Virus record (IMG/VR): IMGVR_UViG_3300042691_032227 | Reading direction: 5' to 3' (one strand) | Source: an uncultured virus (IMG/VR IMGVR_UViG_3300042691_032227) | Taxonomy: Duplodnaviria > Heunggongvirae > Uroviricota > Caudoviricetes | Length of the DNA stretch: 64,000 nt | Shown here: positions 12,790 to 47,117 of the stretch, in pieces | Position numbering within the stretch: the first letter of the stretch is position 1 | Layout of the letters: each line of letters starts with the position of its first letter | Notes under the pieces: generated by a model | Databases searched by the model: none | Told to the model about the DNA's origin: nothing | Seen by the model: the letters and a program-made list of their open reading frames with translations, nothing else | Position numbers and translations under genes: made by a program

Positions 12790-12797
12790 GGTAACTA

Positions 12798-16847: not shown

Positions 16848-16848
16848 T

Positions 16849-17325
16849 ATGGCAAATATCCCACTAAATTACGATGTAGCTGTTGATGAAGTAAGTACCT
16901 TTAAAACATTTGGCACCTTCTCCAACAATACAGATTCTTTTGGAAATTTACAATTAGTTTATTCAGTAGCACAGTCTGTAAATGCAAATGTGAATTATGT
17001 TAAAGTACCATTAAAAACATTTGTTTATAATGAAAATAAAATTGTAGATTCAAATACGTCAGATTTTACAGAATTACAAACTCCTGAAACTCAACAAAAA
17101 CAAAATGTTAATGAGTTACTACAACAATACAACGAATTATTAGCTGAAAATAGAATTTTGAATCAAACAGTCAATGGTCTTGTTGAAAAGTATGAAAATA
17201 ACGATGACAAACAAGTAATTGACGCTCAAAAGAATACTATTATTGCATTGAGAATACAATTGGGACAAGGAAATGTTCCTTCAGATTTTTCAGATGACTT
17301 TCCGTTTTTACCTTTAGAATCATAA
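16849..17325 (+). CDS. Hypothetical protein with coiled coil
   Basis: 158-aa ORF tightly packed in the structural operon. Confidence 0.7.
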   Translation: MANIPLNYDVAVDEVSTFKTFGTFSNNTDSFGNLQLVYSVAQSVNANVNYVKVPLKTFVYNENKIVDSNTSDFTELQTPETQQKQNVNELLQQYNELLAENRILNQTVNGLVEKYENNDDKQVIDAQKNTIIALRIQLGQGNVPSDFSDDFPFLPLES

Positions 17326-17326
17326 T

Positions 17327-20300: not shown

Positions 20301-21766
20301 CTCCTGTAAATTTGTATGGAAGTCCAGCTGTTATTCCAAATCAAAATAACAGATACAATACACAATTCTATGCATATAATTTTCAAAGAACGCCAGTAGT
20401 ATATGGCGCTCCTATTTGCGATACTATATTATCTGATATTTTCCCTTACCAATTTGAAAAGTTTAATATTAAACAAGCTATAAATTCAAATCGGTACGGT
20501 CCTAATTATAAAGCTAATGCAAATATCAATAAAATTGATCAAAAAGTTAGTTCAAATTTAGTACCATATGAATATTCTACATATACAGATGATATTTTGG
20601 GTAGCGATTCTAATTTAGTAGGATATTACATTTCTCCATACAGTTATCTTAATACCAAGATAGAAGACTTTTTGGGTAAAGAAGGCATTAGTGATATTAT
20701 CGGAGATCCTAAATATCTAACATCTAGAAATTACCCAGAATTAAAGTTGAGACAAAAAGAATTTTCGGCTGCAAATATAAAATATACTTATCCACAAGAA
20801 TACTATTCGACATATAGATTTTATATCGACTTTTCTATATTCGACTTTGTTAAGAAACTAACGCCTACTCGTAGTACGTTAAAAACTGGATTATTGTTGG
20901 AACCATCTATTTTTGAACGTGTTAAATTCAATTATAAAGACACCGATTTTTCCGCATTAGATCCTAATAGTACTTCTAGCTTAATATCATTTAATATAAA
21001 TCCAAAATTTACATCTTCATTGTTGGATACAAACGATACATCAAGTTATACAATAATAAATGTAAAAAACATCAATACTCTAAAAACTGATAATAACACT
21101 TACAATTATTCAATGTTTGAGATAAAGGATGTGGTGGATGATAGGGATTTTATATATGCTAAATATGGTAAGAACGTGTATATTGATTCTAACGGTTATA
21201 ATGTAAGAAATGTAGTTAAATATCCAACTGATGAATACTATCTGTCTACAAATAATACCGGATCCGCTATAATTATTTTTACATCCAGTTATGATTTAAT
21301 TCAATCAATCGGATCTGGATCCGGTCAGTTGTCAAATCAAATAACAGGCAGCAATTCTCTCAAGAATCTTTACAGTGGATCTTCAGGCAACGGTTATTCA
21401 CAGAGACATTTGAGTAAGTTTATTAGAGTCGGATCAAGAGTTAAAAAACAAGCGGTTTCTGGATCTTTTTATAAGATAGTAAACGGTATAAAGTTATTAG
21501 CTCCAGGTGCTTTAAATTATTACACATATGTTAAAGGTCAAAATGATTCTACAACTACTGTAAATCGTCAAGGGTTACCAAATGGAAGTTCTCCAATTAT
21601 CACAATACCAGGCTTTTTGAGTGTTGATATTGAAAGCGATAACTTCCCTAAATATGGTGAATTAACAGGATCAGCAGGAGCTCCTAATAGTTTGTTTGTA
21701 CAATTACCACTAACATGTTCTACATGTACTAGTGCTAGTTTGAATAATTATATTATGAATTTATAA
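17327..21766 (+). CDS. Large baseplate wedge protein (gp7/gpI-like)
   Basis: 1479 aa; EISPSRTEIRL, MVGHFFD, NLPYIYKTKGT (gpI-like KGT motif); baseplate context. Confidence 0.6.
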   Translation: MPYDYLTINEQDLAYGIVSASYFDSNLQSLYEQQILNTEEFFGDSNDDIIELSVYNSNQQPISFDRIIPSTTFSIVESSYRDINNQQLSYRVANPFTNYALYKNELLLHSQFDLQFNQLSPGLYYTLYNPVRNIAGNTTNRLFIKEISPSRTEIRLSFAFNTALNETNRLDAVKISAFAEKKYIFLQIVDEIIPIIDKNPIDNSFNSEINNFNYFKYAQLLGFKSVAELQEFINLIYVGYDKNINLSSDPDAVITQNIKFVGIAEQLRNFVYQYNEVEFTKEEILNAFQIIVTKVSQDAILQRTTLTDIDLQETLNVFVQVVFNDWISPQTSDLLDKYFNKFYAFFKNALNFDNGNLVKILNHTSYFNPVDGRVNVQIKLDQPLPLQYSIKDTCWISNISLAPLYFKVNLYTAPVSRKVFLNGVNFSVAVPTVNPTNDNFRDDKSNTLFAAESRLQQKINDLLINYTDFNNFINFSSAELRTKIAKSKLSKYQSYNSTKNNIKTKANATTNTSISASYSQDLKIVIEEQISLLNSFDEYESYLFYYTGSIDDKLEEGINYDKNNFNSLFYQLPDYIKSEAAYGDYVKFTAMVGHFFDNILVFIKKFPKSYPIDYNDNNHYPKNYIEELLNNFNWDVTNVKFNRSNIPQLLFDQTQLTGSLSSSYFTYAKSIFNRITNNLPYIYKTKGTSDSFNLIRTIFGVSSDLINVVEYTSPDVLANRNVFYDFDDIIYAATFETDQFINFNFTGSEYKIFAGQQFYSGSYSQLTRSCVERFTGVSTVECTFRSSDFTKYNFRDRIPIIKKLRNDKVDWQVYLYKTKQAQSAKLIFELTPIESLITSSISSIELPYLNGDFYTFMLRKQPNETIEFDSLYIVSQSNALTQSLTSSAADKYVPHTYTLKVNQYYGTQLNFTDTQNKTILYNQNQYFSSGSYYVGNFSSSIQFYGNIDKVKVQKYALNDADFREHSYNLNSISIPEKSLVYENMYYLWSFDTPVNLYGSPAVIPNQNNRYNTQFYAYNFQRTPVVYGAPICDTILSDIFPYQFEKFNIKQAINSNRYGPNYKANANINKIDQKVSSNLVPYEYSTYTDDILGSDSNLVGYYISPYSYLNTKIEDFLGKEGISDIIGDPKYLTSRNYPELKLRQKEFSAANIKYTYPQEYYSTYRFYIDFSIFDFVKKLTPTRSTLKTGLLLEPSIFERVKFNYKDTDFSALDPNSTSSLISFNINPKFTSSLLDTNDTSSYTIINVKNINTLKTDNNTYNYSMFEIKDVVDDRDFIYAKYGKNVYIDSNGYNVRNVVKYPTDEYYLSTNNTGSAIIIFTSSYDLIQSIGSGSGQLSNQITGSNSLKNLYSGSSGNGYSQRHLSKFIRVGSRVKKQAVSGSFYKIVNGIKLLAPGALNYYTYVKGQNDSTTTVNRQGLPNGSSPIITIPGFLSVDIESDNFPKYGELTGSAGAPNSLFVQLPLTCSTCTSASLNNYIMNL

Positions 21767-21815
21767 CAGATTTTTTGATTAAAAACCAAAAACGATTGAT
21801 AATTATTTAATATAT

Positions 21816-22457
21816 ATGGCATACCTTAATAACAACGTTCTCACCGTCAACGCAATTTTGACAAAAAAGGGTCGTGAAGTATTGGCAAAGACGGGTGGAT
21901 TGAACATTACAGCTTTTGCTTTGGCTGATGATGAAATTGACTATACACAATTTAATCCAAATCATCCAATGGGCAGTGCATACTTTGATATTGCAATTCG
22001 TAACACTCCAATTATGGAACCAATTACGGATGAAACACAAACCATGAAGTATAAGTTGGTTACACTAAACGACGGTGTAACTTCTGTACCAACAATCAGT
22101 ATTGCGCCACCTGTAATTTCAGTACCTCGTACATATACATCAGCAATCGATATTATTCCAAGTACAAGTCCAGTTTATAATGTAACTTTGGGTTATACGG
22201 CAATTTTGTCAAATAAAAATGTTGGTACTCTTGTAGTAACCGAAACAAACAGTTTAAATTCTGCAACAGCAACTATTCCTACTTTCTCAGGCGATCTTGC
22301 TTCACAAGCTTCACAAGTTGTGGTAGGTAATAAGTTCAGATTTATACCTAATACGTCATTATCCAAGACTACTACAACAAATATTACAATTATAGGAAAT
22401 GAAAGTGGTGGTAGTGCTTCAATCAATGTGACCGTAAGTGTACCAACTACAAACTAA
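21816..22457 (+). CDS. Baseplate/tail-collar structural protein
   Basis: AILTKKGREVLA..ITAFALADDEIDY resembles fibre-attachment N-terminal domains. Confidence 0.6.
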   Translation: MAYLNNNVLTVNAILTKKGREVLAKTGGLNITAFALADDEIDYTQFNPNHPMGSAYFDIAIRNTPIMEPITDETQTMKYKLVTLNDGVTSVPTISIAPPVISVPRTYTSAIDIIPSTSPVYNVTLGYTAILSNKNVGTLVVTETNSLNSATATIPTFSGDLASQASQVVVGNKFRFIPNTSLSKTTTTNITIIGNESGGSASINVTVSVPTTN

Positions 22458-22463
22458 TAAATT

Positions 22464-23585
22464 ATGATATTCACTCCATTTACTCCAGACGATATAGTAG
22501 CAGGTAGAATAAACCAAGTATCATCCGGTATGTTTGGTACTGGCAGTTTGACAGTTGCACAATCGACATTTACATCTGCTTCAGCACAAGCCAACGTATT
22601 AACCGGATCGGGTCCATTTGATGTTAAAAACGGACAATACTATATTGACGTTTATAGCGGAGGAGATCAATATTTTGCAGTCGCATATGGTGATTACTAT
22701 AATTCAGGTAGTAGTTATTTCGACTATTCTGGTCAAAGTATAGCTAAAGTATATACCAACGAAACAAAAGTAATTTATACACAATATAAAAATACACTAC
22801 TACAACCAGGCGACACATTCTTTAGTTTTGCGTCTGGTAGTGTGGATAGTCCAGTAGATAGTTCAGCTATATTCGTATTGAACTATGTAGCTGACAAATT
22901 CCAAGATCAAATTGACCCTGGACAAATTCAAGTTAATTTAAGTGGATCATTTGGTCAATATTCATATATAGATGATTCTCAAGTTGTAAATACCCAACAA
23001 AATGTTTACAATTTAATTTCAGGATCAATTATCAACGGAGTACCAACACCTTACACCAAAAACGGTACAGTAACAGCTGTTTACGAAGGAATCGGATTGT
23101 TTTATCCTACAAATGGTATTGTAGTATTCAACGCAATTAAATTAGATGCTAAAGTTGGTATTACACCTACCAGTCCATCCGGTACACCACAAATTACGGC
23201 AACAAGACCATCCAATGCTTCATCAACTCAATTTAAAAATTATTGGAGAGATTGGATTCGTAAGTTTTATAATTCTTTAAGAAAATCCACCAAAAACATG
23301 GCGGTTAGAAAGAGTGAGTTTGTACCATCTACAAACTATTTCGTTCGTGTAAAGAATAAAGAATTTAATTATAGTAACAACCCAACATTTGTTTCCGATG
23401 GAAGTGATGGTCAAACAAAAGGTACAATTATTTATCCAGCTTTGATAAGTAATCCTCGTACTTACATCACTACAGTAGGATTATATGATGCTAATAACGA
23501 ACTATTAGCCGTGGGTAAATTGAGTAAGCCTACACAAAAATCATTTGATAATGAATTGTTGATTAAATGTAGAATCGATTTTTAA
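22464..23585 (+). CDS. Virion structural (baseplate) protein
   Basis: C-terminal EFNYSNNPT..YITTVGLYDANNELLAVGKLSKP motif. Confidence 0.65.
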   Translation: MIFTPFTPDDIVAGRINQVSSGMFGTGSLTVAQSTFTSASAQANVLTGSGPFDVKNGQYYIDVYSGGDQYFAVAYGDYYNSGSSYFDYSGQSIAKVYTNETKVIYTQYKNTLLQPGDTFFSFASGSVDSPVDSSAIFVLNYVADKFQDQIDPGQIQVNLSGSFGQYSYIDDSQVVNTQQNVYNLISGSIINGVPTPYTKNGTVTAVYEGIGLFYPTNGIVVFNAIKLDAKVGITPTSPSGTPQITATRPSNASSTQFKNYWRDWIRKFYNSLRKSTKNMAVRKSEFVPSTNYFVRVKNKEFNYSNNPTFVSDGSDGQTKGTIIYPALISNPRTYITTVGLYDANNELLAVGKLSKPTQKSFDNELLIKCRIDF

Positions 23586-23620: not shown

Positions 23621-26098
23621 ATGATTAAGTTTCTTAAAAATCAAGATATACAGATTACTACATTTGCAGTTGCTAAGAAAAAAATTGCTAATAACATTTT
23701 TTATGATTTAATTCTTGCAAGCGACGGTACATATGATTTTCCACTTATCATTCCTGTACAAGAATGTGGTTACAATTATAATAGTTTGCAAACAGGTTCG
23801 TTTGCTTCTATAAATTATAATTGTGATGGTACTTCATTGAATACAAATGGATTTTTAGCAAGTTCTCCATTTACAGATCAAAATAATCCTGAATTTAGAT
23901 TGGGTTTAAAAATACCTTCAAGTTCCGTTTTTTATCCAGTAGGAGATCCAAATTATAATCCGCTTACAAATCCTACCAATTTAGACGGTACATATCAAGG
24001 ACAAGTTTATAATACAATTAAAAACATGTATTATAACAACTACAATAATGCATATCAACAATTTGGTATCGATGGATTTGATACTTCATTAGCAAAATTA
24101 AATCTTGATGATAAATTTGTAAGTTATACCCTAAATGTTACTCAAAGTGGAGATAAAATTAGACCCAAGAGTGTTATAATAAACAATCAAACCGGCGATA
24201 TAGTAGCCTACATTGTTGATGATGGTAACAATAATTTGTTTATATCAGGTTCATATTTTGTAAATGATTTTGAATTACAAACCAACAATACAGCATCCGT
24301 ATTAAATTATTGTTATCAAGGAATTGGTAGATATTTATGTGTGCCACCACCACCACCGCCACCTGCTCCATCACCAACACCTTCTCCTAGTGTTACACCT
24401 ACTCCAACAGTCACTCCAACTCCTAGTTTAACACCTACACCTAGCGTCACGCCTACTCCAAGTGTAACTGTTACGCCTAGTATAACACCTACTCCAAGTG
24501 TAACACCTACTCCAAGTGTAACACCTACTCCAAGCATAACTCCCAGTGTTAGCATAACACCTACTCCCAGTGTAACACCAACTCCAAGTGTAACAGTCAC
24601 TCCTAGCGTAACACCAAGTATTAGCGTAACACCTACGCCAAGTGTAACGCCTAGTATTAGCATAACACCTACGCCAAGTGTAACGCCTAGTATTAGCATA
24701 ACACCTACGCCTAGCACAACTCCTGCTGGAAGCGTGACACCTACGCCAAGCATTACACCTAGTATCAGCATAACACCTACGCCTAGCACAACTCCTGCTG
24801 GAAGCGTGACACCTACGCCAAGTGTAACGCCTAGTATTAGCATAACACCTACACCTAGTGGTACTCCAGGAGCAAGCGTGACACCTACGCCAAGTGTAAC
24901 GCCTAGTATTAGCATAACACCTACACCTAGTGGTACTCCAGGAGCAAGCGTGACACCTACGCCAAGCATTACACCTAGTATCAGCATAACACCTACACCT
25001 AGTGGTACTCCAGAAGCAAGCGTGACACCTACACCAAGCATTACACCTAGTATCAGCATAACCCCTACGCCTAGTATAACATCAACACCTAGTATAACTC
25101 CAACCACCAGTATTACGCCTACACCAAGCATTACACCTAGTATTAGCGTAACACCTACACCTAGTGGTACTCCAGGAGCAAGTGTGACGCCTACACCAAG
25201 TGTAACGCCTAGTATTAGCATAACTCCTAGTATAACACCTACGCCAAGTATAACGCCTACACCAAGTGTAACGCCTACACCAAGTGTAACGCCTACACCA
25301 AGTGTAACGCCTAGTGTCAGCATAACGCCTAGTGTCAGCATAACGCCTAGTGTAAGTGTAACACCGAGTATAACGCCTACACCAAGTGTAACGCCTAGTG
25401 TCAGCATAACGCCTAGTGTAAGTGTAACACCGAGTATAACACCTACGCCAAGTATAACGCCTAGCGTCAGCATAACGCCTAGTGTAAGTATAACACCTAC
25501 AACAAGCATTACACCTACACCTAGTATTACGCCTACAGTAACACCTACACCAAGCACTAGTACTGCTCCAGCCGGCGCTGCATATTTCGTTGTGTATCCA
25601 GCGGCTAGCGCATGTCCTCAACAAGACCCTTGTCCCGATCCTATACCAAGTGGGTGTGACTGTTACACAGGAGCTCCTACCGGAGCAAGATGTAATAATG
25701 GTAATATGGAAGTTGTATCATCGTGTGTATCACAAAACAGCGGTAATGGTATATTGGTTTATACACAATGCAATGCAAGTGTCACTATTACAGATACAGC
25801 TGAAGTTCCTCTAACGGCATTGGGATTGAGATGTAGTAACAAAGTTATAGCTACAGGATATATTAGTTCAGGCTTTGTTCCAGACAATGGCGCCGCCGTT
25901 ACATTGTATACTACACAAAAGGCTTATTCGCCAGTCGATGGTTGTTGTGTACAAAATGTAAATATTAACTATAATGTAGACTTTGACTCATTCCTAATTA
26001 AGTTGGCAGCTGCTTGTGGTAGTGGAACTGTCGAAGATCCATATCGTATATTCACACAAGGTTCTGAACCTCAATCTCCTTGTCAGTCATGTCCGTAA
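23621..26098 (+). CDS. Structural protein with mucin-like Thr/Ser/Pro tract and Cys-rich C-terminal domain
   Basis: N-terminal domain resembles ORF 22464; ~400 aa of TPTPS(V/I) repeats; Cys-rich tail. Confidence 0.8.
24344..25570 (+). repeat. Low-complexity TPTPS(V/I) coding repeat with nested 72-nt tandem units
   Basis: Unit [24 protein letters not shown] recurs at 72-nt spacing (e.g. 24721/24793; 24860/24932/25004). Confidence 0.9.
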
Positions 26099-26135
26099 GT
26101 TAAAAGTTATATGAACTAAAATCCAACGTCGTTAA

Positions 26136-26151
26136 AGACTCTTAAGAGTCT
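26136..26151. other. Perfect 16-bp palindrome
   Basis: AGACTCTTAAGAGTCT in the intergenic gap before the glycosyltransferase cassette. Confidence 0.6.
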
Positions 26152-26198
26152 CATAATTATAAAAAATAGTTACAAATATAACATGATATATTATAGAT

Positions 26199-28802
26199 AT
26201 GTCAAAGATATTTGTACAAATAGCGAGTTATAGAGATCCAGAATTAATTCCAACAATCAAAGATTGTATTGATAAAGCAAAACATCCGGAAAATTTAGTT
26301 TTTGCTATAGGATGGCAACATGATGAATCTGAAAATTTGGATGAATTCAAAAATGATAATAGATTCAAAATTATTGACATACCTTATAAGGAAAGCAAAG
26401 GTGTCTGTTGGGTAAGACATCAACTTAATTTATTGTATTCTGGCGAAGAGTATTGTATGCAATTAGATAGTCATCATCGATTTGTGGAAAATTGGGATGA
26501 ACAATTAATTGAAATGTTAAAAGATCTACAAAAAAAAGGATCTAAAAAACCATTGATTACTGCTTATATTCCGTCATATGAACCAAATAATGATCCTGCT
26601 GCTAGAGTACACGAACCGTGGATGATATGTTTTGATAGATATTTACCTGAAGGGCCAATATTTCCAACGCCGTCTGTGATACCGAATTATAAAAAGTTGA
26701 CTTCTCCCATTCCAGCAAGATTTTTTTCCGGACATTTTGTTTTTACACTTGGTTCATTTGTTAAAGAAGTTGTATATGATCCAAACCTATACTTTCACGG
26801 TGAAGAAATAAATATGGCTGTTAGAGCTTACACACACGGATATGATTTATTTCACCCACATAAAATTGTAGCGTGGCATTATTATTATAGAAATGGTGCG
26901 GTTAAACAGTGGGATGATGATAAGATTTGGAATGAGAGAAACAATTCTTCACATCTTAGAACAAGAAAACTATTTGGTATGGATGGCGAAATCAAAAATA
27001 TAGATTTTGGCATTTTTGATTTGGGTAAAGTTAGATCATTAGAAGATTATGAAAGATTTGCTGGAGTAAGATTTAAAGACAGAGCTGTACAACAATATAC
27101 ATTAGATCAAAAACTGGCACCAAATCCGATTATAGAAGATTCGGTTGAATATGAAAAGTCGTGGATACATGTTTTTAAATTTTGCATAGATATGCATGTA
27201 GATAGTGTTCCCGAAAACGATTATGATGCCTGGATCATTGCATTTAAAAATGCAGATGGTAAAGAAATTATTAGATGTGACGCGGATGAAAATGAAGTAA
27301 ATTCATTTAAAAGATCAAATCCTTCTGATAAATGGTATAGAATTTGGAGAACTTTTTATACAAAAGAACTTCCATACAGTTATGTATTTTGGCCACATAG
27401 TAAATCAAAGGGATGGACGGAGAGAATAGAACGTATCATTTATGATTTTAAAAAACCAATTCCACGTACACCCGATCCTGTCAGTCTGTGGAAACATATA
27501 AACAAATACAAGAAATCCAAAGTTAAGTTTAATAAAAATCCAAATAAACGTAAAATATTTGTTCATATACCGGCATATAGAGATCCTGAACTATTACCTA
27601 CGATAGAAAGTGCATTGACTAATGCTAAACATCCTGAAAGATTAGTTTTTGGAATTTGTCATCAATTTAATGAAGATGATAAGTTTTCTAGAGATATAGA
27701 CAAATATCGTAACGACGAAAGGTTTAGAATTATTGACATGGATTATACTGAAGCAAAAGGGTTGCCATTTGCTAGGTATCAGATCAACACAATGATGCTC
27801 GATGAAGAGTACATTTTACAGTTAGACAGTCATCATCGTTTTAATAAAGACTGGGATAATACTTTAATTGAAATGCACGACGGTTTAAAAAAAGACGGTG
27901 TTAAAAAACCACTTGTTGCTGGATATCTTCCTTTTTATGATCCAACTGACGATCCTAAATCTAGAACAAAAGAACCTTGGCAGTCGGTAATGTCTTGTTT
28001 TTATCCACACGGTACTATTTTTATTAGACCCGCTGCTTTTAAGAATCTTAATCAAATAACAAAACCTGTACCAGCTCGGTTTTTATCAGGCCATTTTTGT
28101 TTTGGTGATAATCACTGGGCTAAGACTATTAAACACGATGTGGATATTTTCTTTAGTGGAGAAGAAATAAATCTCACCGTTAGATCTTTTACACACGGAT
28201 ATGATATTTATCATCCACATAAAGTTGTTATTTGGCATTCAATGACTAGAAAAGAGCGTGATGGTATTCTTGTGTGGGATGATCAAAATAAAAGAGGTGA
28301 AAATTGGAGTGATTCACAGAATAAGGCGAGAGCTAAAATTAGACAGTTACTACAAACCGAATACAATGGATTTGATTTGACTGGATATGATCTTGGTAAA
28401 GAACGATCATTACATGATTACGAACTATATTCAGGTATATGTTTTAAAGAAAAATCAGTTCAACAGTATACTATGGATAATGATATTCCACCAAATCCAC
28501 CAATGTCAGACGATGAATGGAAAAAATCACTTAAAAAGTCATTTTATCATCTAGTTAATATTACTAGAGATCAATTACCTGCAAATGATTATTCTGCTAT
28601 TTTAGTAGCATTCGATGATGCTGGTGGTAAATCTGTAAATAGTAAATATATTGTTGGAAAACAATTAACCGATTTTATACATAACAGTACGCCAATTCAT
28701 TATGAAGAATATTTCTTAACTGATAGGTGGCCTATAAAAGTGGTTTATTGGGCAGTAAGTGAAACAAGAGGTTGGTCAGAACGTATAGAAATAAAATTAT
28801 GA
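26199..28802 (+). CDS. Tandem GT60-like polypeptide GlcNAc-transferase (two catalytic domains)
   Basis: Two copies of IFV.I..YRDPEL..QLDSHHRF..WD..LI..ARF.SGHF.F..F.GEEIN..VR..THGYD..HP, matching the Gnt1/GT60 signature with DSH motif. Confidence 0.82.
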   Translation: MSKIFVQIASYRDPELIPTIKDCIDKAKHPENLVFAIGWQHDESENLDEFKNDNRFKIIDIPYKESKGVCWVRHQLNLLYSGEEYCMQLDSHHRFVENWDEQLIEMLKDLQKKGSKKPLITAYIPSYEPNNDPAARVHEPWMICFDRYLPEGPIFPTPSVIPNYKKLTSPIPARFFSGHFVFTLGSFVKEVVYDPNLYFHGEEINMAVRAYTHGYDLFHPHKIVAWHYYYRNGAVKQWDDDKIWNERNNSSHLRTRKLFGMDGEIKNIDFGIFDLGKVRSLEDYERFAGVRFKDRAVQQYTLDQKLAPNPIIEDSVEYEKSWIHVFKFCIDMHVDSVPENDYDAWIIAFKNADGKEIIRCDADENEVNSFKRSNPSDKWYRIWRTFYTKELPYSYVFWPHSKSKGWTERIERIIYDFKKPIPRTPDPVSLWKHINKYKKSKVKFNKNPNKRKIFVHIPAYRDPELLPTIESALTNAKHPERLVFGICHQFNEDDKFSRDIDKYRNDERFRIIDMDYTEAKGLPFARYQINTMMLDEEYILQLDSHHRFNKDWDNTLIEMHDGLKKDGVKKPLVAGYLPFYDPTDDPKSRTKEPWQSVMSCFYPHGTIFIRPAAFKNLNQITKPVPARFLSGHFCFGDNHWAKTIKHDVDIFFSGEEINLTVRSFTHGYDIYHPHKVVIWHSMTRKERDGILVWDDQNKRGENWSDSQNKARAKIRQLLQTEYNGFDLTGYDLGKERSLHDYELYSGICFKEKSVQQYTMDNDIPPNPPMSDDEWKKSLKKSFYHLVNITRDQLPANDYSAILVAFDDAGGKSVNSKYIVGKQLTDFIHNSTPIHYEEYFLTDRWPIKVVYWAVSETRGWSERIEIKL

Positions 28803-29503
28803 TTATGAATGAGAAATATACAAAAATACTAGAGTTATCTAAAAATTTTAATCCAGATGTAATTTACTGGGATCGTGTTAGATTAGAACCATTTGAAAAT
28901 AGTCTAAGAAGTTATCCCGCAAAATGGATAAGAAAAACACATGAGTTTCTTAGAATTTTAGAAGCAAAAACTATAGTGGAAATAGGATCTACTCGTATAG
29001 AAACTACACAAAAATGTATCGACTATTATAACAAATCATTTGATATAAAAGAATGTGAGGCACCGCCTTGTTGTCAAGATGGACATTCTACTCATTTTTG
29101 GGCTAAAGAAGGATACGATGTATACACAGTTGATATAGATCCACATTGTAAGACACAATTAGAAAATCAGTATAAATATCATTTAAACGAAGATCTTCCA
29201 AGTAATTTACATATTTGCATTCCACAATGTGGAATTGAATTTTTAAAAAATTTTAATAAACAAATCGACTTTTTGTATTTAGATGGATGGGATGTTGGTA
29301 GTCATTTATATGCAGAAAAACATTTAGAAGCATTTATTACAGCAAGACCCAAATTATCTCCCTTACATTTAATATCTGTAGATGATACTGATTTTATAGA
29401 ACCTGTTGGTGGAAAAGACAAATTATTAACACCATATCTTTTACAAAATGGATATACAAAAATCGTGGGGGGGAGGCAATCGATATTTATAAATCATGAA
29501 TGA
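28799..29503 (+). CDS. Class I SAM-dependent methyltransferase
   Basis: IVEIGS, VYTVDID, IDFLYLDG, VDD motifs; ATG at 28799 overlaps the upstream stop. Confidence 0.7.
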   Translation: MIMNEKYTKILELSKNFNPDVIYWDRVRLEPFENSLRSYPAKWIRKTHEFLRILEAKTIVEIGSTRIETTQKCIDYYNKSFDIKECEAPPCCQDGHSTHFWAKEGYDVYTVDIDPHCKTQLENQYKYHLNEDLPSNLHICIPQCGIEFLKNFNKQIDFLYLDGWDVGSHLYAEKHLEAFITARPKLSPLHLISVDDTDFIEPVGGKDKLLTPYLLQNGYTKIVGGRQSIFINHE

Positions 29504-30512
29504 ATCTCCTAAAATTGCAATGTATTGTTTTGGCACCCCTATGAAATATAGGTTTGATTTACTACTAAAATCTTGTAGTGACGTTGTTAAGAATTATATT
29601 GTAATATTTACTACAAAATATTATTTTGAGTTGTATAAAGATTATCACGATTTATTTACGTTTGTTGTAATTGACGATTTACGAAACGATAATTTATTAA
29701 GTTTACAAAACGAAATATGCATGGAAGCTTCTTCAGACGAAGAGTTTTATTTAAAATTTAATCAATTTTATTCTATAAATAAAATTCAAGTGCCTTTGTT
29801 TTTAAACAGGTATATATTAAAATATTTTTCGGAAAAAAATATTCTAAATTTTGTTATTGTGGATACTGATATGGTTATACGAAACGATATAGAATGTATT
29901 GAAGATTTTTTTAATAATATACCTGTAGGGTCGGTTTATGCTTGGAATCAAGGATATCATACAAAAGAATCTTCTTATGTTAATATTATTTTTAATTTTT
30001 TGGAAAAATGTACTAATAATCAATTACCCAAATTTAAATTAGAAAATTTTCAGTTTCGTAACGATGATAGTTTTATTTATGGCGGAAATTTTAAAAATAA
30101 AAAAGATTTACTTTTATTATTTAATTTAATCGATACTTTTATAACTGAATCATTTTCTCTGAACCAGACTCTTTTATTTAAAGGAACGTATTATCACAAT
30201 TTTATTTGGACATTTCCAACGGCATTTGATATATTAAAAAATAACTTAGATTATTTATATTTAAATGCACAAGATCTAACTCATTTACCAAAATGGGGTA
30301 ATATAATGATTCATAAAACTAGGCCGGAGGATACATTTCATTCAGTTGGTTCCCGTTCATGTTGGGACCATTTTTCTTTTGACTATTCGGATGTAACGTC
30401 TATATCAAAATTTATTAAAAACAATAAGTTACAACTTAAAAAATATTATGATCAACATCTCCCAATTTTAGAAATTACCGATACCCACGTTTATACCACG
30501 ATTGGAAATTAA
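29496..30512 (+). CDS. Putative glycosyltransferase-like protein
   Basis: FVIVDTDMVI DxD motif; within glycan cassette; very AT-rich. Confidence 0.45.
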   Translation: MNESPKIAMYCFGTPMKYRFDLLLKSCSDVVKNYIVIFTTKYYFELYKDYHDLFTFVVIDDLRNDNLLSLQNEICMEASSDEEFYLKFNQFYSINKIQVPLFLNRYILKYFSEKNILNFVIVDTDMVIRNDIECIEDFFNNIPVGSVYAWNQGYHTKESSYVNIIFNFLEKCTNNQLPKFKLENFQFRNDDSFIYGGNFKNKKDLLLLFNLIDTFITESFSLNQTLLFKGTYYHNFIWTFPTAFDILKNNLDYLYLNAQDLTHLPKWGNIMIHKTRPEDTFHSVGSRSCWDHFSFDYSDVTSISKFIKNNKLQLKKYYDQHLPILEITDTHVYTTIGN

Positions 30513-30514
30513 AT

Positions 30515-31339
30515 ATGAAAACCATAATCACGCTTACCACAATACCCACACGTTTAAATTCTACAACATATACGTCAGGTATTAAAGATTGTTTAAATTC
30601 ATTATTAAATCAAGAATTTGATGGCGATTACGAAATCCATTTAAACATACCAGATGAAAATCATAAAACCAAAGAAAAATATATTGTGCCTGATTGTCTT
30701 AAAAATTTAAGCATAACCAATCCTAAATTAAAGTTATTTTGTGGATTACAAGATTTGGGGACAATAACTAAGATTTTTTATACATTACATCGGGAAGACA
30801 ATCCAAATACTATAATAGTGGTATGTGATGATGATTTAATATATCATCCTTCGATGTTATCAGAACACGTTAAGAACCAATCTATATATGAAAATACTGC
30901 AATTGGTTATGATGGTATGAGGGCTGATAGAGAAACACCAGAAGACGTTTCAAAATTAAAAGGAGATGTAAGAGATCATTATGTCGTCTCGGTTGCTGAA
31001 AACATATATGTTAATGTATTGCAACACTATAAAACTGTTTCTTATAAAAGAAACTTTTTTAAAGATGATTTTTTTGAATTTTATAAAGAGGGAAGTTGGA
31101 ATGATGATATTATCGTTGCAGCATATTTAGGAAAACACAACATTCGAAAAATGGTGACTTTTTATGAAAACGAAGAAAAACTTCTATCGTTACAAGACTG
31201 GAGAGACAAAGGAGGGGTAACGACTTTTCCTGTACTTTCACACACAACACATGATATAAATGAAGGATGCAATTTATATCGTCAAGAACAAGCCGACGAT
31301 TCACACACTAATTTTTATAAAATGGGTTATTTAAAATGA
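30515..31339 (+). CDS. GT-A fold glycosyltransferase
   Basis: ITLTTIPTRL N-terminus, VCDDDLIY, NDDII motifs. Confidence 0.7.
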   Translation: MKTIITLTTIPTRLNSTTYTSGIKDCLNSLLNQEFDGDYEIHLNIPDENHKTKEKYIVPDCLKNLSITNPKLKLFCGLQDLGTITKIFYTLHREDNPNTIIVVCDDDLIYHPSMLSEHVKNQSIYENTAIGYDGMRADRETPEDVSKLKGDVRDHYVVSVAENIYVNVLQHYKTVSYKRNFFKDDFFEFYKEGSWNDDIIVAAYLGKHNIRKMVTFYENEEKLLSLQDWRDKGGVTTFPVLSHTTHDINEGCNLYRQEQADDSHTNFYKMGYLK

Positions 31340-33726
31340 ATATAATATCTGACACTTTACATTATATAGGTAAAAACTACAATGATACGTTTGTTTTGCA
31401 AATTGGAGCAATGGACGGTATAATTTTTGACGATACCCGTGGTTTTTTAGATATGTATCGATGGCCAGCATTATTAGTTGAACCGATTCCGTCTATTATG
31501 GAAGAGTTAAAAAAGAACTTTTCTTATGTAGATAATTATAAATACGAACAATCTGCTATATCCGATTTTGATGGAGAAACTGTAATGTTAACAATTCCAT
31601 CAGATGTTATTGAAAGAGAGAATTTACATACTGGATATAAAGGTATGAGTGCTTTGTATCCTTTAAGAAATGGATTTGGAAGTGATTATCAACGAGACGT
31701 AGATGTTAAATCCAAATTCGGAGTAGATATAAAAGTTAATACGTTAACATTAAAATCTTTAATAGATAAACATAACATATCAAAAATTGACGTTTTAATT
31801 TGTGATGCCGAAGGTTATGACTGGAAAATATTTCAACAATTAGATTTTAGTAAAATTCGTCCAAAATTTATAAGATTAGAATATATCAATCTTTCCGAAG
31901 AAGAGAAAAAATTAACAATTGAAAAATTTGAAAAAAATGGTTATGTGATTGAAATAGGTCAAAATATAGATGGCGTCGATAGACAAATTTACGAAAAAAT
32001 TAAAAACAATGTTAACACAGTCGGTAAAAGTAAAATATCTAAAGACTTAACCGTTGTTACAGGTCTTTGGAACATAAACAGAACAGGAAGATCGTTTGAT
32101 CATTATATTGAACATTTTAATAAGTTATTGGATATTGATGCAAATTTATTTATTTATTTGCCAAAAGAATTAGAACATTTGGTTTGGAAAAAAAGATCTC
32201 CACAAAACACTTACGTAAAAATATATGAGTTGAGTGATATAAAAAATATGTATAACCCATTTTGGGAAAAAACACAAAAAATAAGAACCGATCATAATTG
32301 GTTCAATATAGCAGGGTGGTTATCATCTTCTCCACAAGCATCTTTAGAATGGTATAATCCAATAGTACAATCAAAAATGTTTTTATTGAATGATGTTACC
32401 ATTTGGAATCCGTTTGATACAAAACATTTTATTTGGTTAGACGCAGGAATAACAAATACCGTATATGAAAAATATTTTACTGACAATAAGTGTTTGGATA
32501 AAATAATTCCTTATTTAGAATCATTTTTGTTTTTAAGTTATCCATATGAAGCTGATAAAGAAATACATGGATTTGATTACAACAAAATTAATCAGTATTG
32601 TGGTCAGAAAGTAAAATACGTTTGTAGGGGTGGGCTATTTGGTGGAAGTAAAGATGTTATTAATCAAGCAAACGCAATGTATTATTCGTTGTTAGATAGA
32701 AGTTTGAATGATGGTTGTATGGGTACAGAAGAGAGTATATTTACTATAATGTCTTATTTAGAGCCGGAGAAGTATAGAAGATATTCATTAGATTCAAATG
32801 GTTTAATTGTAAAATTTGTACAATCGCTTATTGATAATACGGTACAACTTGAAAAGATACCTAAAACAGCTAATGTTTATATTCCAAAAAAGTCAGTGGA
32901 TGTTGATAAGTTAAAATTATCAATATATATGTTAACATTTAACTTTCCACATCAAGTCGAACATACTATACAAACCTGGCTTAAACATCCAAAGTGGATA
33001 ACCAATACACGAAACATTTTGATTGATAATTCTACAAACGAAGAAGCTAGAATTGCAAATGCAGAATTGTGTAAAAAGTATAATTTTGAACATATCATAA
33101 ATAATCAAAATACAGGAATAAATGGTGGTAGATTTAAAGCAGCACAACACTTTCAAGAATCTGATAGTGATTATTATGTATTTTTGGAAGATGATATGGG
33201 TATACATGAACCCGGATCCGAAGTATGTCGTAATGGATTCACAACCTACGTACCAAATTTGTATGATAAAGTTTTAAAAATTATTGATGGAGACAACGAT
33301 GTAGATTTCTTAAAGTTTTCATACACAGAAGTATACATGGATAACAACATACAAGTTTCTTGGTACAATGTGCCTCAAACAGTAAGAAATGAAATCTGGC
33401 CTACTTACAGTAAATTACCAGTTACGGGACACGATCCTAACTGTCCTAGAACTAAGTTTGATACAATCGAAGTAGTTGACGGATTGAGTTATATCAAGGG
33501 TGAAGTATATTATGCAAATTGGCCAATGATAGTCGGTAAACGAGGAAATAAAAAGATGTTTTTAGATACCACATGGGCCCATCCATATGAACAAACGTGG
33601 ATGAGTCATATGTTTCAAGAAACAAGAAAAGGTAACTTAAAACCAGCTGTATTATTAGCAAGTCCTGTTAATCACAATAGAATTGCTTATTATAAACCCG
33701 AGGAAAGAAAAGAAAATGCTGGATAA
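31336..33726 (+). CDS. Fusion: FkbM methyltransferase + HtrL/YibB-like + GT2-like domains
   Basis: QIGAMDG/LVEP/ICDAEGYD (FkbM); TVVTGLWNI..IWLDAG..GGLFGG (HtrL-like); IDNS..FLEDD (GT-A). Confidence 0.72.
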   Translation: MNIISDTLHYIGKNYNDTFVLQIGAMDGIIFDDTRGFLDMYRWPALLVEPIPSIMEELKKNFSYVDNYKYEQSAISDFDGETVMLTIPSDVIERENLHTGYKGMSALYPLRNGFGSDYQRDVDVKSKFGVDIKVNTLTLKSLIDKHNISKIDVLICDAEGYDWKIFQQLDFSKIRPKFIRLEYINLSEEEKKLTIEKFEKNGYVIEIGQNIDGVDRQIYEKIKNNVNTVGKSKISKDLTVVTGLWNINRTGRSFDHYIEHFNKLLDIDANLFIYLPKELEHLVWKKRSPQNTYVKIYELSDIKNMYNPFWEKTQKIRTDHNWFNIAGWLSSSPQASLEWYNPIVQSKMFLLNDVTIWNPFDTKHFIWLDAGITNTVYEKYFTDNKCLDKIIPYLESFLFLSYPYEADKEIHGFDYNKINQYCGQKVKYVCRGGLFGGSKDVINQANAMYYSLLDRSLNDGCMGTEESIFTIMSYLEPEKYRRYSLDSNGLIVKFVQSLIDNTVQLEKIPKTANVYIPKKSVDVDKLKLSIYMLTFNFPHQVEHTIQTWLKHPKWITNTRNILIDNSTNEEARIANAELCKKYNFEHIINNQNTGINGGRFKAAQHFQESDSDYYVFLEDDMGIHEPGSEVCRNGFTTYVPNLYDKVLKIIDGDNDVDFLKFSYTEVYMDNNIQVSWYNVPQTVRNEIWPTYSKLPVTGHDPNCPRTKFDTIEVVDGLSYIKGEVYYANWPMIVGKRGNKKMFLDTTWAHPYEQTWMSHMFQETRKGNLKPAVLLASPVNHNRIAYYKPEERKENAG

Positions 33727-33756: not shown

Positions 33757-36399
33757 ATGTCCAATTTACAAAACATATATAATCAAAATTATGGTACTAT
33801 AGTCTGTACCAACGGCGATTATGTTGCTATAGGCAATCCAATTGATCAAGACTATGACAGTTGTGAGGGATTTGGCAAAATAGGACAGGTATTGTTGTAT
33901 AAAAAAGACAATTATTTAAATCAATATAGATTGTCTAATATTCTTACCAATAAAACTTTTGCGCAAAATGGTACGTTGTTTACGTATTATACTGAACAAA
34001 GTAGTAGTACTTCATTTACAGCATCATTTACAAAAGATGACGGTGGGGTTAATAGTGTTAATACAACATGTAGTTATTTAGTAACCGAAGTAGGTACTGA
34101 AGACATATATCAATCTAAATACGGATATGCTGTAGATTTATCTACCTATTTCATGGCGGTTGGCGATTATGGTTCAATTAATAGTTACTATCCTGGGTTA
34201 ACAGCATCAAAAGCTACCATATCTATATATGAAATAAATCCAAATTATGTATATGATCTTACTTCAAGTGTAACGGCTGTAGAAACTACTGATTATCAAA
34301 GTTTGGAAACTTATAATGTAAGTAATATTCCAATATGTGTAATTACAGGTTCACAAATTGATCAGTTTGGAAGATGTGTAAGTATTTCAAATAACTATTT
34401 AGCAGTTGGTGCGCCTACATACAACGGTGGTAGAGGTGCTGTCTATTTATATAAATATTCCGATGCAGATTGTATATATTCGCTTCAAAAAATTCTAAGT
34501 TGTAGTATAAACGATTACCCTCTTCAAACTGGATTTGGATTCTCTATCTCTATTGACAAGAAAAATGAAAATATCTTGGTGGTGGGTAGTAATCAAGTAT
34601 CTCATTCAAATGTATATTTATATCAAACTTCATCAAATGGATGGAATTTAAATCAAGTTTTTAGTCAAAACACAAGTTCACAATATTATAAATTAGAGAA
34701 TTCTACGTTTGAATTGTTTCCAAGTGGAAGTCAAACTAAAACTAGATTTGGTTATTCGGTATCACTATATGATAGGATTTTAGCAATAGGTGCTCCAAAT
34801 GACTTGGTTTATTGGGAATATTCCGGATCAAATGTATTACGTCAACGAGGCAGTGTTTATCTATATGAAAACGGTCAATGCGACGCTGATGTAAATTGTG
34901 GATTTCAATTATTGACTAAATTATACGGAGATGACGTAACTTTCAAAGATAATCTATTTGGATTTTCGGTTTCGGTTTACAACAATAAAGTGTTAATAGG
35001 ATCACCTAAGCCATATTTTCCATTTAGTTCGTTGTTTATTTCTAGTTCAATTAATTATTACGATTTAACATTTGATCAATATGATTACGGTGAATCTACA
35101 TACAGTGGACAAAGTTTACTTTATTATGTATCAAAGTCTTTAATTACTCAACTAACTACCGATCCGATTTCAAAACGTAAAGAAATAGGTAAGCCATTTA
35201 ATGCATTTGGTTATAGTGTATCTGTATCAGATCAAAATGTTGTGATAGGAGCTCCTATTCCGCTTAATGATGATTTTAGATTATCCGGAATATTAATTAC
35301 CGAATCGGGCAGTAGAAGTGATTTATCGTATTTACTTACATCGTCATATCAAAGTGAAGATTGTACAGTGACTTCAAGTTTTGTATATTTTCAGATGGAA
35401 GATTGTATAAGTTGTGGTCCAACTGAACCCGTTAGTGGCCCTGAAGATTGTTATTGTTATTGTAAAAAATGTAACAATTTGGTGGTATTTGTTGAAGAAC
35501 AAGGCGATGTTAAAGATGCATCCGAATTGATTTTGGGTAAATCTTACATTTATAATTTAACAGACTTACAAAAAGACTACAATGTTGGTAATGTGTTCTA
35601 CAACACTAACACAATCGTTATCAATAATACCGGCAGTGTATTGAAAAATTTAACTTTGGATCCTACAAATTATGAAAACACATATTTGTATATGGAATAT
35701 CAAAGTCAAATTTCTTTACACGAAAAACAATATATTTGTACAGTTGAACCCGGAGAATTTAACGTTTCAACCAATCCTACGGCAATAACATCTTCAATGT
35801 TTGATTATGGAGTAATAAATACACAAACGTTTGACTTTAATAATCTTGATATCATTTTAAGATATATTAATTATAGAATTTCTGTAGACGGGTCTGAAAA
35901 ATGGTGGAACAATTTTATAAGCGGAGATGTGGAAGAATCCATATTTACTTTCTATACATCATCGTTTTATGATTATGAACAAAATAGATTAACCGAAGCT
36001 TTGAAGTATAAATGCAGTACCTTAGATTTTGACGTTAACGGCGACGGTATAGCTAATAGTCAAGATGGTTCTGCTATATGGAAGTATTTCATTCAAGACT
36101 TTACCATCAATAATTATCAAAATTATATCAATCAAAGATCTAAACGAAAGAACTATGATGATATGGTTTCTTTCTTAAATAAGAAAACAGGTAAATTTAA
36201 TAGTGGTTTAATAAAGAACGATTTCTTTGGATATAGTATAAGTTCATCATTTGATCCAACAGGTTCATACCTAGCACCATATATAACTACTGTAGGCCTA
36301 TATAGTGGTGCTGATTTGGTTGCGATGGCTAAATTAGCAGCGCCTATTAAAAATACAGGTGAGATTCCTATTAATATTGTTGTTAAATGGGACACTTAA
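33757..36399 (+). CDS. Virion structural protein with FG-GAP-like beta-propeller and EF-hand/dockerin-like motif
   Basis: Repeated FG(Y/F)SVS..L.IGAP..G.VYLY blades; DVNGDGIANSQD; C-terminal YITTVGLY..AKLAAP like ORF 22464. Confidence 0.75.
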   Translation: MSNLQNIYNQNYGTIVCTNGDYVAIGNPIDQDYDSCEGFGKIGQVLLYKKDNYLNQYRLSNILTNKTFAQNGTLFTYYTEQSSSTSFTASFTKDDGGVNSVNTTCSYLVTEVGTEDIYQSKYGYAVDLSTYFMAVGDYGSINSYYPGLTASKATISIYEINPNYVYDLTSSVTAVETTDYQSLETYNVSNIPICVITGSQIDQFGRCVSISNNYLAVGAPTYNGGRGAVYLYKYSDADCIYSLQKILSCSINDYPLQTGFGFSISIDKKNENILVVGSNQVSHSNVYLYQTSSNGWNLNQVFSQNTSSQYYKLENSTFELFPSGSQTKTRFGYSVSLYDRILAIGAPNDLVYWEYSGSNVLRQRGSVYLYENGQCDADVNCGFQLLTKLYGDDVTFKDNLFGFSVSVYNNKVLIGSPKPYFPFSSLFISSSINYYDLTFDQYDYGESTYSGQSLLYYVSKSLITQLTTDPISKRKEIGKPFNAFGYSVSVSDQNVVIGAPIPLNDDFRLSGILITESGSRSDLSYLLTSSYQSEDCTVTSSFVYFQMEDCISCGPTEPVSGPEDCYCYCKKCNNLVVFVEEQGDVKDASELILGKSYIYNLTDLQKDYNVGNVFYNTNTIVINNTGSVLKNLTLDPTNYENTYLYMEYQSQISLHEKQYICTVEPGEFNVSTNPTAITSSMFDYGVINTQTFDFNNLDIILRYINYRISVDGSEKWWNNFISGDVEESIFTFYTSSFYDYEQNRLTEALKYKCSTLDFDVNGDGIANSQDGSAIWKYFIQDFTINNYQNYINQRSKRKNYDDMVSFLNKKTGKFNSGLIKNDFFGYSISSSFDPTGSYLAPYITTVGLYSGADLVAMAKLAAPIKNTGEIPINIVVKWDT

Positions 36400-43512: not shown

Positions 43513-43516
43513 AATT

Positions 43517-46099: not shown

Positions 46100-46100
46100 A

Positions 46101-47075: not shown

Positions 47076-47117
47076 TTAAAATAAACGATTTGGTATTTTT
47101 GTTCTATAAATAATAGT

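Follow-up and report, generated by a model that had tools for sequence, protein, structure and literature searches.

Mucin-type O-glycosylation, as started by enzymes of the glycosyltransferase (GT) families GT60 and GT27, is treated as a eukaryotic trait in the part of PMC8724618 that was available. The same part describes GT60 enzymes as relatives of GT27 that lack the ricin-like domain, and as a protein-specific family whose characterised members act on mucin-like Thr-rich repeats; its reference list adds the hydroxyproline-specific Gnt1 to the family. Here we describe a stretch of 64,000 nucleotides (nt) from an uncultured virus (IMG/VR record IMGVR_UViG_3300042691_032227, Caudoviricetes), referred to below as the window, in which positions 23621-33726 hold a tandem GT60 enzyme next to the gene for a protein with a long Thr/Pro repeat. 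An earlier note, made from the letters alone, had proposed that the phage initiates, extends and methyl-caps O-glycans on this protein. The open reading frames (ORFs) that it listed are all present, on the + strand and at the positions it gave. Its overall interpretation is supported in silico, since the PF11397/GT60 match and the linkage to Thr/Pro repeats both came out as predicted. We consider that the genes form a phage-encoded cytoplasmic mucin-type protein O-glycosylation system, and put the probability of this at roughly 0.65.

The protist GT60 enzymes (from Dictyostelium and Trypanosoma cruzi, including the Skp1 Gnt1) belong to the same Pfam family as the window enzyme. Like them, the window enzyme has a GT-A fold close to GT27 and no ricin-type lectin domain, and its candidate acceptor is also a Thr/Pro-rich repeat. 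Cytoplasmic Gnt1 is soluble, and the window enzyme is likewise soluble. What is different, both with respect to the protist enzymes and to the other known systems, is the host domain (the enzyme is encoded by a phage, with homologues in bacteria), the tandem duplication of the enzyme, an extra β-rich C-terminal domain of ~115 amino acids (aa) in each unit, a partner enzyme with two GT-A domains, and a swappable gene cassette. The system may work by analogy with mucin-type initiation in protists, and with virus-encoded virion glycosylation, of which few cases are known.

Among phages, such cases are very few according to the part of PMC12619734 that was available, which cites the finding of glycans at the C-termini of capsid and tail-tube subunits of mycobacteriophages (Freeman et al., 2023). 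There, as is predicted here from the genes, the phage uses its own GTs on its own structural proteins. In contrast to the mycobacteriophages, the candidate acceptors here are long internal Thr/Pro stalks of fibre-like proteins, and the initiator belongs to GT60. In the cultured Xanthomonas jumbo phage XacN1, at least two virion proteins were Schiff-stained, and the available part of PMC5852040 suggests that phage enzymes may make them, naming ORF334. We find that ORF334 is a GT60 homologue (40-45% identity) and that ORF330 is the two-GT-A partner (40% identity). Thr-Pro (TP) tracts of XacN1 are found in the large unassigned ORF369, 370 and 372, beside the tail sheath genes, and also in ORF325, ORF350 and ORF384. 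XacN1 is therefore like the window in having GT60, the two-GT-A partner and many TP tracts near tail genes, but unlike it in having a GT60 of one unit only, with a carbamoyltransferase after it.

Giant viruses provide a further comparison. Chlorovirus capsid glycosylation is mentioned in the available part of PMC5852040, and literature search listings give Mimivirus R699 as a collagen glucosyltransferase. As in the window, the machinery is virus-encoded and does not depend on the endoplasmic reticulum or the Golgi, and Foldseek ranks R699 first for the two-GT-A partner, as a fold match at 10-12% identity. Unlike the window phage, giant viruses infect eukaryotes, and their acceptors are N-linked capsid glycans and collagen hydroxylysine. 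In bacteria, autotransporter heptosylation by TibC and AAH is similar in that a soluble enzyme acts on adhesin repeats before assembly or export, and a TibC-like domain occurs in the window. GtfA/B glycosylate serine-rich repeat proteins, in another cytoplasmic bacterial O-glycosylation. The window differs from TibC/AAH and from GtfA/B, which are GT-B enzymes, in that the initiator for the TP stalk would be a GT-A enzyme of GT60, and the acceptor motif is different.

The genes of the proposed system, all on the + strand, are as follows.
23621-33726, +: proposed glycosylation gene set and stalk gene
23621-26098, +: P0001, 825 aa by translation, the proposed acceptor
26199-28802, +: tandem GT60 enzyme, 867 aa (PF11397, phrog_24687)
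26199-27488, +: GT60 unit A, a GT-A catalytic domain followed by the ~115-aa β-rich C-terminal domain
27531-28802, +: GT60 unit B, a second and diverged copy, in which the invariant residues of YRD, LDSHHRF, GEEI and THGYD are retained
28772-29503, +: 243-aa protein of the variable cassette, a possible class I S-adenosylmethionine (SAM) methyltransferase
29496-30512, +: 338-aa protein of the variable cassette, family unrecognised, with a conserved D-x-D
30515-31339, +: 274-aa GT2-like protein of the variable cassette (sub-threshold match)
31336-33726, +: 796-aa fusion of FkbM, HtrL-like GT-A and GT-A domains (Pfam)

Sequence, fold and motif all place the 26199-28802 protein in PF11397/GT60. 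The PF11397 match scores 417.4 bits, the cut-off being 21, with E 7.9e-125. Its four stretches together cover both units, and it is repeated in the near-identical record G001. The phrog_24687 profile (409 positions) matches the protein twice (E 8.6e-257). The protein is a head-to-tail duplication of a unit of ~410 aa, and both units carry the YRD / QLDSHHRF / GEEI / THGYD signature. The earlier note had read two such domains from this gene and expected two matches to GT60, and both were found, with GT27 as the nearest fold. Unit A is 54-59% identical to single-unit homologues, while unit B is 43% identical to unit A; judged by these identities, unit A is the orthologue of the single-unit enzymes and unit B a copy that has diverged.

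When 17 units, which come from 13 loci, are aligned, 95 positions prove invariant. The residues YRD, LDSHHRF, GEEI, T212, G214, Y215 and D216 are invariant in 17/17 units, the two halves of the window enzyme among them, and H213 is near-invariant. The strict conservation includes L89-D90-S91-H92-H93, which contains the D-x-H motif, and we take D90 and H92 to be the metal-binding site. The D-S-H motif presumably stands in the same kind of "LDSH" context as in GT27.

A sequence search of the PDB with the GT60 enzyme gave no match, and because no GT60 structure has apparently been solved, the fold was compared by means of a model. The AlphaFold (AF2) model of unit A was made from a 17-sequence alignment (predicted local distance difference test, pLDDT, 79.6; predicted template-modelling score, pTM, 0.80). 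It has a GT-A domain, followed by a β-rich domain at about residues 320-415. The best Foldseek match is the polypeptide N-acetylgalactosamine (GalNAc) transferase GalNAc-T4 (E 1.9e-10), followed by T2, T10, T7, T12, PGANT9 and Toxoplasma GalNAc-T3, and these GalNAc-transferases rank ahead of wall-teichoic-acid and other GT2 enzymes. The GT27 matches range from E 1.9e-10 to ~1e-8 with a template-modelling score (TMq) of ~0.45. However, the identity to them is only 8-18%, and the window enzyme has neither a Golgi membrane anchor nor a ricin lectin (no lectin family was found in it by the Pfam scan). It is not a GT27 member.

P0001, encoded immediately before the enzyme, consists of an N-terminal domain (aa 1 to ~240), a stalk (aa ~240-655) and a Cys-rich C-terminal domain (aa ~655-825). 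The stalk, of ~415 aa (nt ~24341-25585), consists almost throughout of a [T/S]-[P/V/I] repeat: Thr or Ser occupies every other position and Pro, Val or Ile the positions between, with Pro making up ~1/4 of the repeat. This agrees well with the ~400 aa of Thr/Ser/Pro repeat that had been claimed for the protein. Thr, Pro and Ser together form 48% of the whole of P0001, which is the sole Thr/Pro-rich ORF in the window by the composition criterion given below. Such long tandem repeats of Pro/Thr/Ser (PTS), here over ~415 aa, are mucin-like features as far as sequence goes. Neither P0001 nor the tandem enzyme has a hydrophobic N-terminus.

At the DNA level the repeat is a tandem array at 24376-25537 with a period of 18 nt and higher orders of 36, 72 and 144 nt. 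The stalk arrays of the window and of the related locus L005 are exactly one 72-nt unit (24 aa) apart in a gene that is otherwise 100% identical, which is either true copy-number variation or an assembly collapse. The repeat length in relatives is 166-255 aa. The N-terminal domain is common only to L005, L006 and L009, and the C-terminal domain only to L005, L007, L008 and L009. The phrog_15511 family, which is of unknown function, matches aa 597-785 (E 3.6e-20). The C-terminal domain has no homologue at E <= 0.001 among proteins of 453-1444 aa, and an Atlas search with the N-terminal domain gave no usable match (Atlas model pLDDT 0.32, all TM < 0.35).

Two other readings of the repeat DNA were discarded. 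The Gly/Val-rich minus-strand ORFs at 24316-25557 and 25082-25624 are mirror by-products of the repeat and not genes. Weak NCBIfam matches (24 bits against a cut-off of 207) would make the repeat a hexapeptide left-handed β-helix of the LpxD/LpxA type, but a fold of this kind is not compatible with two prolines in each hexad, and the matches were rejected as an effect of composition.

The pairing of GT60 with Thr/Pro repeats was examined in related phage loci. An ORF, taken from stop to stop, was called Thr/Pro-rich if any 40 consecutive residues had T+P+S >= 60%, P >= 15% and T+S >= 30%. The GT60 loci comprised 15 viral loci found with the enzyme as query and the best 80 of at least 627 IMG/VR stretches found with an alignment as query, with 10 kb taken on each side of GT60. 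For a set of 93 loci, from which one duplicate had been dropped, all ORFs of at least 120 aa were clustered. A Thr/Pro-rich ORF lies within 10 kb of GT60 in 53/94 loci when ORFs of at least 100 aa are counted, and in 51/93 with ORFs of at least 120 aa. In 35/93 loci, it lies directly upstream of GT60 on the same strand, with at most 900 nt between its end and GT60. Counted per GT60 cluster, such adjacency is seen in 22/67 clusters at 90% identity, 12/45 at 80% and 6/9 at 70%. The domains that flank the Thr/Pro-rich tracts are diverse, falling into 26 clusters on the N-terminal side (71 sequences) and 35 on the C-terminal side (63 sequences), and so it is a compositional class rather than one gene family that recurs beside GT60. 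No Thr/Pro-rich ORF was found in the control set of 80 portal-anchored loci from the same lineage (0/80; 0.96 Mb).

At the level of whole genomes, we searched for DNA coding for TPTPxxTP, with the reversed pattern as a control. It is present in 8/8 GT60-positive genomes with 2-32 matches each (20, 6, 16, 8 and 2 in five complete IMG/VR genomes, 32 in XacN1, 22 in Xoo-sp13 and 24 in RAS14), compared to 0-1 for the reversed pattern. It is present in 0/7 GT60-negative phages (Mel-JY01, immuto_3-5A, RsoM2USA, LR756508, PA5oct, P-SSM7 and RM378; 1.78 Mb in total). Only 4 of 50,697 GenBank phage records matched the enzyme by tblastn, and it is from this search that the seven are taken as GT60-negative. 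In the reverse direction, 80 loci were chosen blind for (TP)5-coding DNA, and GT60 was found within 10 kb of seven of them (six contigs). Both of the larger (TP)5 contigs in a first batch without nearby GT60 have a GT60 gene elsewhere (2/2).

The link is not confined to phages. In GTDB genomes, 198 stretches encode relatives of GT60, and the best 79 of these loci were examined. The two-GT-A partner is present in 36/79, and a Thr/Pro-rich ORF was called in 40/79, although several of these calls at high G+C are spurious frames. Clear cases of a Thr/Pro-rich gene adjacent to GT60 occur on megabase contigs of Saprospiraceae, Sphingomonadales, Vicinamibacterales and others. The cultured, non-pathogenic isolate Jiulongibacter sediminis JN14-9 has a chromosomal module with two GT60 genes (L203, 7948-15151), in the order UDP-glucose dehydrogenase and epimerase, second GT60, a 262-aa protein, GT60, carbamoyltransferase and FkbM-HtrL-GT. 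The 262-aa protein has a hydrophobic N-terminus and a TP tract of ~140 aa. The order GT60-carbamoyltransferase is common to Jiulongibacter sediminis, XacN1, Xoo-sp13 and RAS14. Taken together, adjacency in 35/93 phage loci, the split between GT60-positive and GT60-negative genomes, the empty portal-anchored control and the bacterial loci bear out the co-occurrence that the earlier note had predicted.

The family is large. Clustered at 50% identity, the proteins that match GT60 with E <= 0.001 fall into 4,628 clusters; for E <= 1e-30 the number is 957. The representative library also contains GT60 proteins of 1100-2461 aa with up to four matched stretches to the unit, and thus multi-unit enzymes far larger than the tandem of the window exist. 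Our literature search found no paper describing GT60 in phages or bacteria, most subscription journals being outside its coverage.

The second fixed component is found at the other end of the gene set. A family of ~560 aa, homologous to residues 235-796 of the 31336-33726 ORF, is present in 81/93 GT60 loci, and the next most shared family is present in only 27/93. The conserved core of the module is therefore GT60 plus this enzyme, which has two GT-A domains. In the window ORF, the matches are to FkbM (E 5e-13), HtrL_YibB (E 1.5e-14) and, weakly, GT2, as expected from the FkbM-HtrL-GT fusion that had been described there. The HtrL-like domain passes PF09612 (54.7 bits against a cut-off of 24.1) but misses the TIGR02192 equivalog cut-off (54.8 against 264.9), and it is therefore described as HtrL-like and not as an HtrL orthologue.

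An AF2 model of the partner from a 48-sequence alignment has a pLDDT of 91.4. Its best Foldseek matches are all two-GT-A proteins, namely Mimivirus R699, the chondroitin polymerase K4CP, LH3 and LARGE1, with E 4e-11 to 1e-8 over both domains and a root-mean-square deviation (rmsd) of ~16-27 Å. The rmsd is large because the domains are oriented differently; the C-terminal GT-A domain alone, aligned with VIA-align, gives Z 16.2 and rmsd 4.2 over 205 aligned residues. As modelled, the partner has two GT-A domains in one chain. Its presence in most loci fits the proposal that the glycan is extended.

The genes between GT60 and the partner vary among close relatives. There are three in the window and in L009. 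In the window and in L006, the partner and the FkbM domain form one fusion, which is not seen in L007-L009. L006 has two ORFs (292 and 320 aa, within 12559-14396) between GT60 and the partner, which are unrelated to the three of the window; this looks like cassette exchange, as in O-antigen loci.

Of the three cassette proteins in the window, the 243-aa protein has no Pfam or NCBIfam match. By Atlas features, its neighbours (score 0.96-0.98) are clusters with Methyltransf_24 in 12-97% of their members, and motifs IVEIGS and LYLDGWD were spotted in it by eye, which is a lead rather than proof that it is a methyltransferase. It is present in L009, L018 and L019, and absent from L006-L008. The 338-aa protein has no Pfam domain in 43 homologues, nor in a set of 32 members, and the profile of its homologues gave no PDB match. 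D123 is nearly invariant in the homologue alignment and D125 invariant, and on the strength of this D-x-D it may be a GT-A enzyme. The 274-aa protein, which has homologues in L009, L018 and L019, matches PF00535 with E 0.0037 and 17.7 bits, below the cut-off of 23.3. The methyltransferase that the earlier note placed after GT60 finds support among Atlas neighbours but in no family model. Of the further GT-A enzymes that it listed, the 338-aa protein has no recognised family and the 274-aa protein stays below threshold. For the methyl cap, it is the FkbM domains that give support, and only these.

P0001 lies after the baseplate wedge genes (phrog_219, gp25) and is bracketed by fibre-like genes. 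The surrounding features, again all on the + strand, are:
12798-13199, +: gp25-like protein, in the baseplate/tail region
13199-15178, +: gp6-like wedge, in the baseplate/tail region
15180-23585, +: five ORFs without a family match
22464-23585, +: 373-aa upstream neighbour, whose C-terminal motif is common with the FG-GAP protein
33757-36399, +: 880-aa FG-GAP repeat protein (PF14312, E 1.8e-26), directly after the glycosylation genes

The baseplate/tail region also holds a tape-measure-like protein. The 373-aa and 880-aa proteins both end in the motif YITTVGLY..L.A..KL..P (13/27 identical, E 0.002), encoded at 23462-23585 and 36279-36399 and kept in L006. This motif may be a shared attachment module of fibre proteins, and the 373-aa neighbour is probably a fibre or baseplate protein. 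A PDB sequence search with the 1479-aa, 373-aa and 880-aa neighbours gave nothing meaningful. We regard P0001 as a candidate fibre because it stands at the end of the baseplate block, because it is built as an anchor, a stalk and a variable tip, and because the genes on both sides share the motif. From its gene position, P0001 would sit in the virion.

We propose the following mechanism. The soluble tandem GT60 would start glycans on the Thr and Ser hydroxyls of the [T/S]-[P/V/I] stalk of P0001, and Thr/Pro tracts in other parts of the genome are probable further substrates. The initiating sugar, judged by family analogy, would be α-linked N-acetylglucosamine (GlcNAc), transferred from UDP-GlcNAc. 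The two-GT-A core of 31336-33726 would then add the next sugars, and the FkbM-type domains together with the lineage-variable cassette (28772-31339) would finish and diversify the glycan. P0001 itself may assemble as a baseplate-distal fibre, anchored by its conserved N-terminal domain, with a glycosylated stalk whose length changes in steps of 72 nt and a Cys-rich tip that is variable. The benefit to the phage could be stiffening, shielding from proteases or antibodies, or adhesion.

Several points weigh against this proposal. For the window phage, both the acceptor and the sugar are inferred. The virion location of P0001 comes from gene order alone, and neither its N-terminal nor its C-terminal domain could be assigned to a known fold or family. 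The GT60 loci are phylogenetically related, and amount to only nine clusters at 70% identity, the six with an adjacent ORF included. The GT60-negative status of the seven control phages is based on a single tblastn search. There is no Thr/Pro-rich ORF within 10 kb in 42/93 GT60 loci, and in three of the five complete genomes (G003, G004 and G006) the tracts found by pattern are more than 10 kb from GT60, the distance being more than 50 kb in G003 and G004. Conversely, 73/80 (TP)5 loci have no GT60 nearby, and a second batch of larger (TP)5 contigs had GT60 in 0/4, one of them 93% complete, so that Thr/Pro tracts also exist without GT60. Finally, in the available part of PMC5852040, the PAS staining of XacN1 virions ties no particular protein, GT60 or TP tract to the bands.

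The loci without a nearby tract, and the long distances in G003 and G004, are what would be expected if the enzymes glycosylate virion proteins other than the stalk, for instance capsid, sheath or β-helical fibres. The stalk gene would then lie beside GT60 only because accessory genes insert at the ends of fibre modules. The window does contain a 1340-aa sheath, as well as a TibC-like enzyme which would act on other substrates. Yet the presence of tracts in every GT60-positive genome and in none of the GT60-negative ones is hard to explain in this way. Adjacency also recurs with unrelated flanking domains, and in bacterial chromosomes that have no phage fibre modules, and the characterised GT60 enzymes use mucin-like Thr-rich repeats, as stated in the available part of PMC8724618. 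We therefore regard glycosylation of other virion proteins in place of the stalk as unlikely.

A second explanation is that the cluster remodels the lipopolysaccharide (LPS) core, capsule or surface proteins of the host, for superinfection exclusion or takeover. HtrL_YibB is named for a gene of the E. coli LPS-core region, the GT60 genes of XacN1 adjoin replication genes, and phage GTs often target host surface glycans or DNA, according to the available part of PMC12619734. Against this, the enzymes have no membrane segments, the partner falls far below the HtrL equivalog cut-off, the cluster is inside the tail-fibre region between two fibre-like genes, and GT60 is a protein-specific family in the available part of PMC8724618. 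Nor does host remodelling account for co-occurrence with Thr/Pro tracts of the phage. It is considered improbable.

It is also conceivable that the mechanism is as proposed for the stalk, with the sugar placed on hydroxyproline made from the stalk prolines, as for Skp1 Gnt1. Gnt1 shows that GT60 includes a hydroxyproline-specific enzyme (PMC8724618, in the part available), and Pro is abundant in the repeat. However, a scan of 46 window ORFs found no 2-oxoglutarate-Fe(II) prolyl-hydroxylase domain, and no prolyl hydroxylase (PF13640) is over the cut-off in any of the five complete GT60-positive genomes (5/5; one match is sub-threshold, at 24.3 against 27 bits). The feature of the repeats that is strictly conserved across loci is Thr or Ser at every second position. 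The lack of a prolyl hydroxylase and this conserved alternation of hydroxy-amino acids lead us to prefer linkage to Thr/Ser, and the hydroxyproline variant is ranked low, as very improbable. Modification of phage DNA bases by these GTs is considered extremely improbable: DNA glycosylation is a common role of phage GTs in the available part of PMC12619734 and the cluster adjoins RuvC, primase and SbcCD-like genes, but the window has neither a hydroxymethylase gene nor one for base modification, GT60 and TibC are both families specific for proteins, and the link to Thr/Pro tracts would be left unexplained.

What recurs is a module in which a GT60 enzyme and its fixed partner accompany Thr/Pro repeat proteins. 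If the proposal of stalk glycosylation is true, glycan-coated fibres would be common in abundant freshwater jumbo phages, with a bearing on adsorption, stability, and evasion of immunity and defence. Bacteria would have a new protein-glycosylation system with a simple acceptor code, and eukaryotic mucin-type glycosylation would have a prokaryotic root. A much bolder version, which we offer as speculation and think doubtful, is that jumbo phages and many bacteria run a full cytoplasmic mucin/proteoglycan factory, from which eukaryotic GT60/GT27 glycosylation descends. In such a factory, GT60 might seed hundreds of sites on Thr/Pro "bottlebrush" fibre stalks, the bifunctional two-GT-A enzyme might polymerise or extend the chains, cassettes might diversify a host-range or anti-defence coat, and a second initiator of the TibC type might decorate other fibre proteins.

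That second initiator is located in a further group of genes in the window:
41590-49889, +: second glycosylation cluster
41590-43512, +: 640-aa protein with GT4 and FkbM domains (Pfam)
43499-46099, +: 866-aa GT34-like protein (weak xyloglucan xylosyltransferase match, E 2e-6)
46101-47075, +: 324-aa protein, family unrecognised
47118-49889, +: 923-aa protein with GT4, TibC-like heptosyltransferase and FkbM domains (Pfam; PDB 4RAP)

Residues 334-703 of the 923-aa protein match residues 20-386 of the 406-residue TibC (4RAP) with E 1.3e-74, which is nearly all of this O-heptosyltransferase of an E. coli autotransporter adhesin. The C-x-x-C...W-C-P...F-E-C positions align between the two, and the Cys cluster presumably has a role in iron binding. 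Mel-JY01 has a homologue of the protein, whose annotation there is FkbM methyltransferase, and three huge uncultured phages have homologues as well; the literature search turned up no paper about TibC copies in phages. Together with the first cluster, to which the second may be linked, the window has at least eight GT domains and three FkbM domains. The presence of an independent TibC-like enzyme, which from its sequence would glycosylate proteins, strengthens the view that the phage decorates proteins.

The window is phage DNA of ~30% G+C with every gene on the + strand. Downstream of the glycosylation genes, the FG-GAP protein is followed by a RuvC-like resolvase, a primase and an SbcCD-like protein, and the late genes include a 1340-aa tail sheath, the large terminase, a T4-type portal and a prohead protease. 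The nearest IMG/VR record is a 44-kb fragment with a completeness estimate of 15%, which points to a jumbo genome. At least 606 IMG/VR stretches match the portal protein, with 80-100% identity in the best 80 of them, and the lineage is therefore abundant. By portal, the isolates nearest to the window are Microcystis phage Mel-JY01, at 56%, and Flavobacterium phage immuto, at 53%.

Three minor observations were made on the rest of the window. PhoH-like and Hsp20 genes, which are common auxiliary genes of aquatic phages, lie at 1044-1763 and 5509-5994, upstream of the tail module. The tail sheath gene (49982-54004) encodes 1340 aa, with the recognisable sheath domains confined to the last ~280 residues. 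The G+C content is raised in the tail sheath region and in the repeat gene, to 0.39-0.43 compared to ~0.30.

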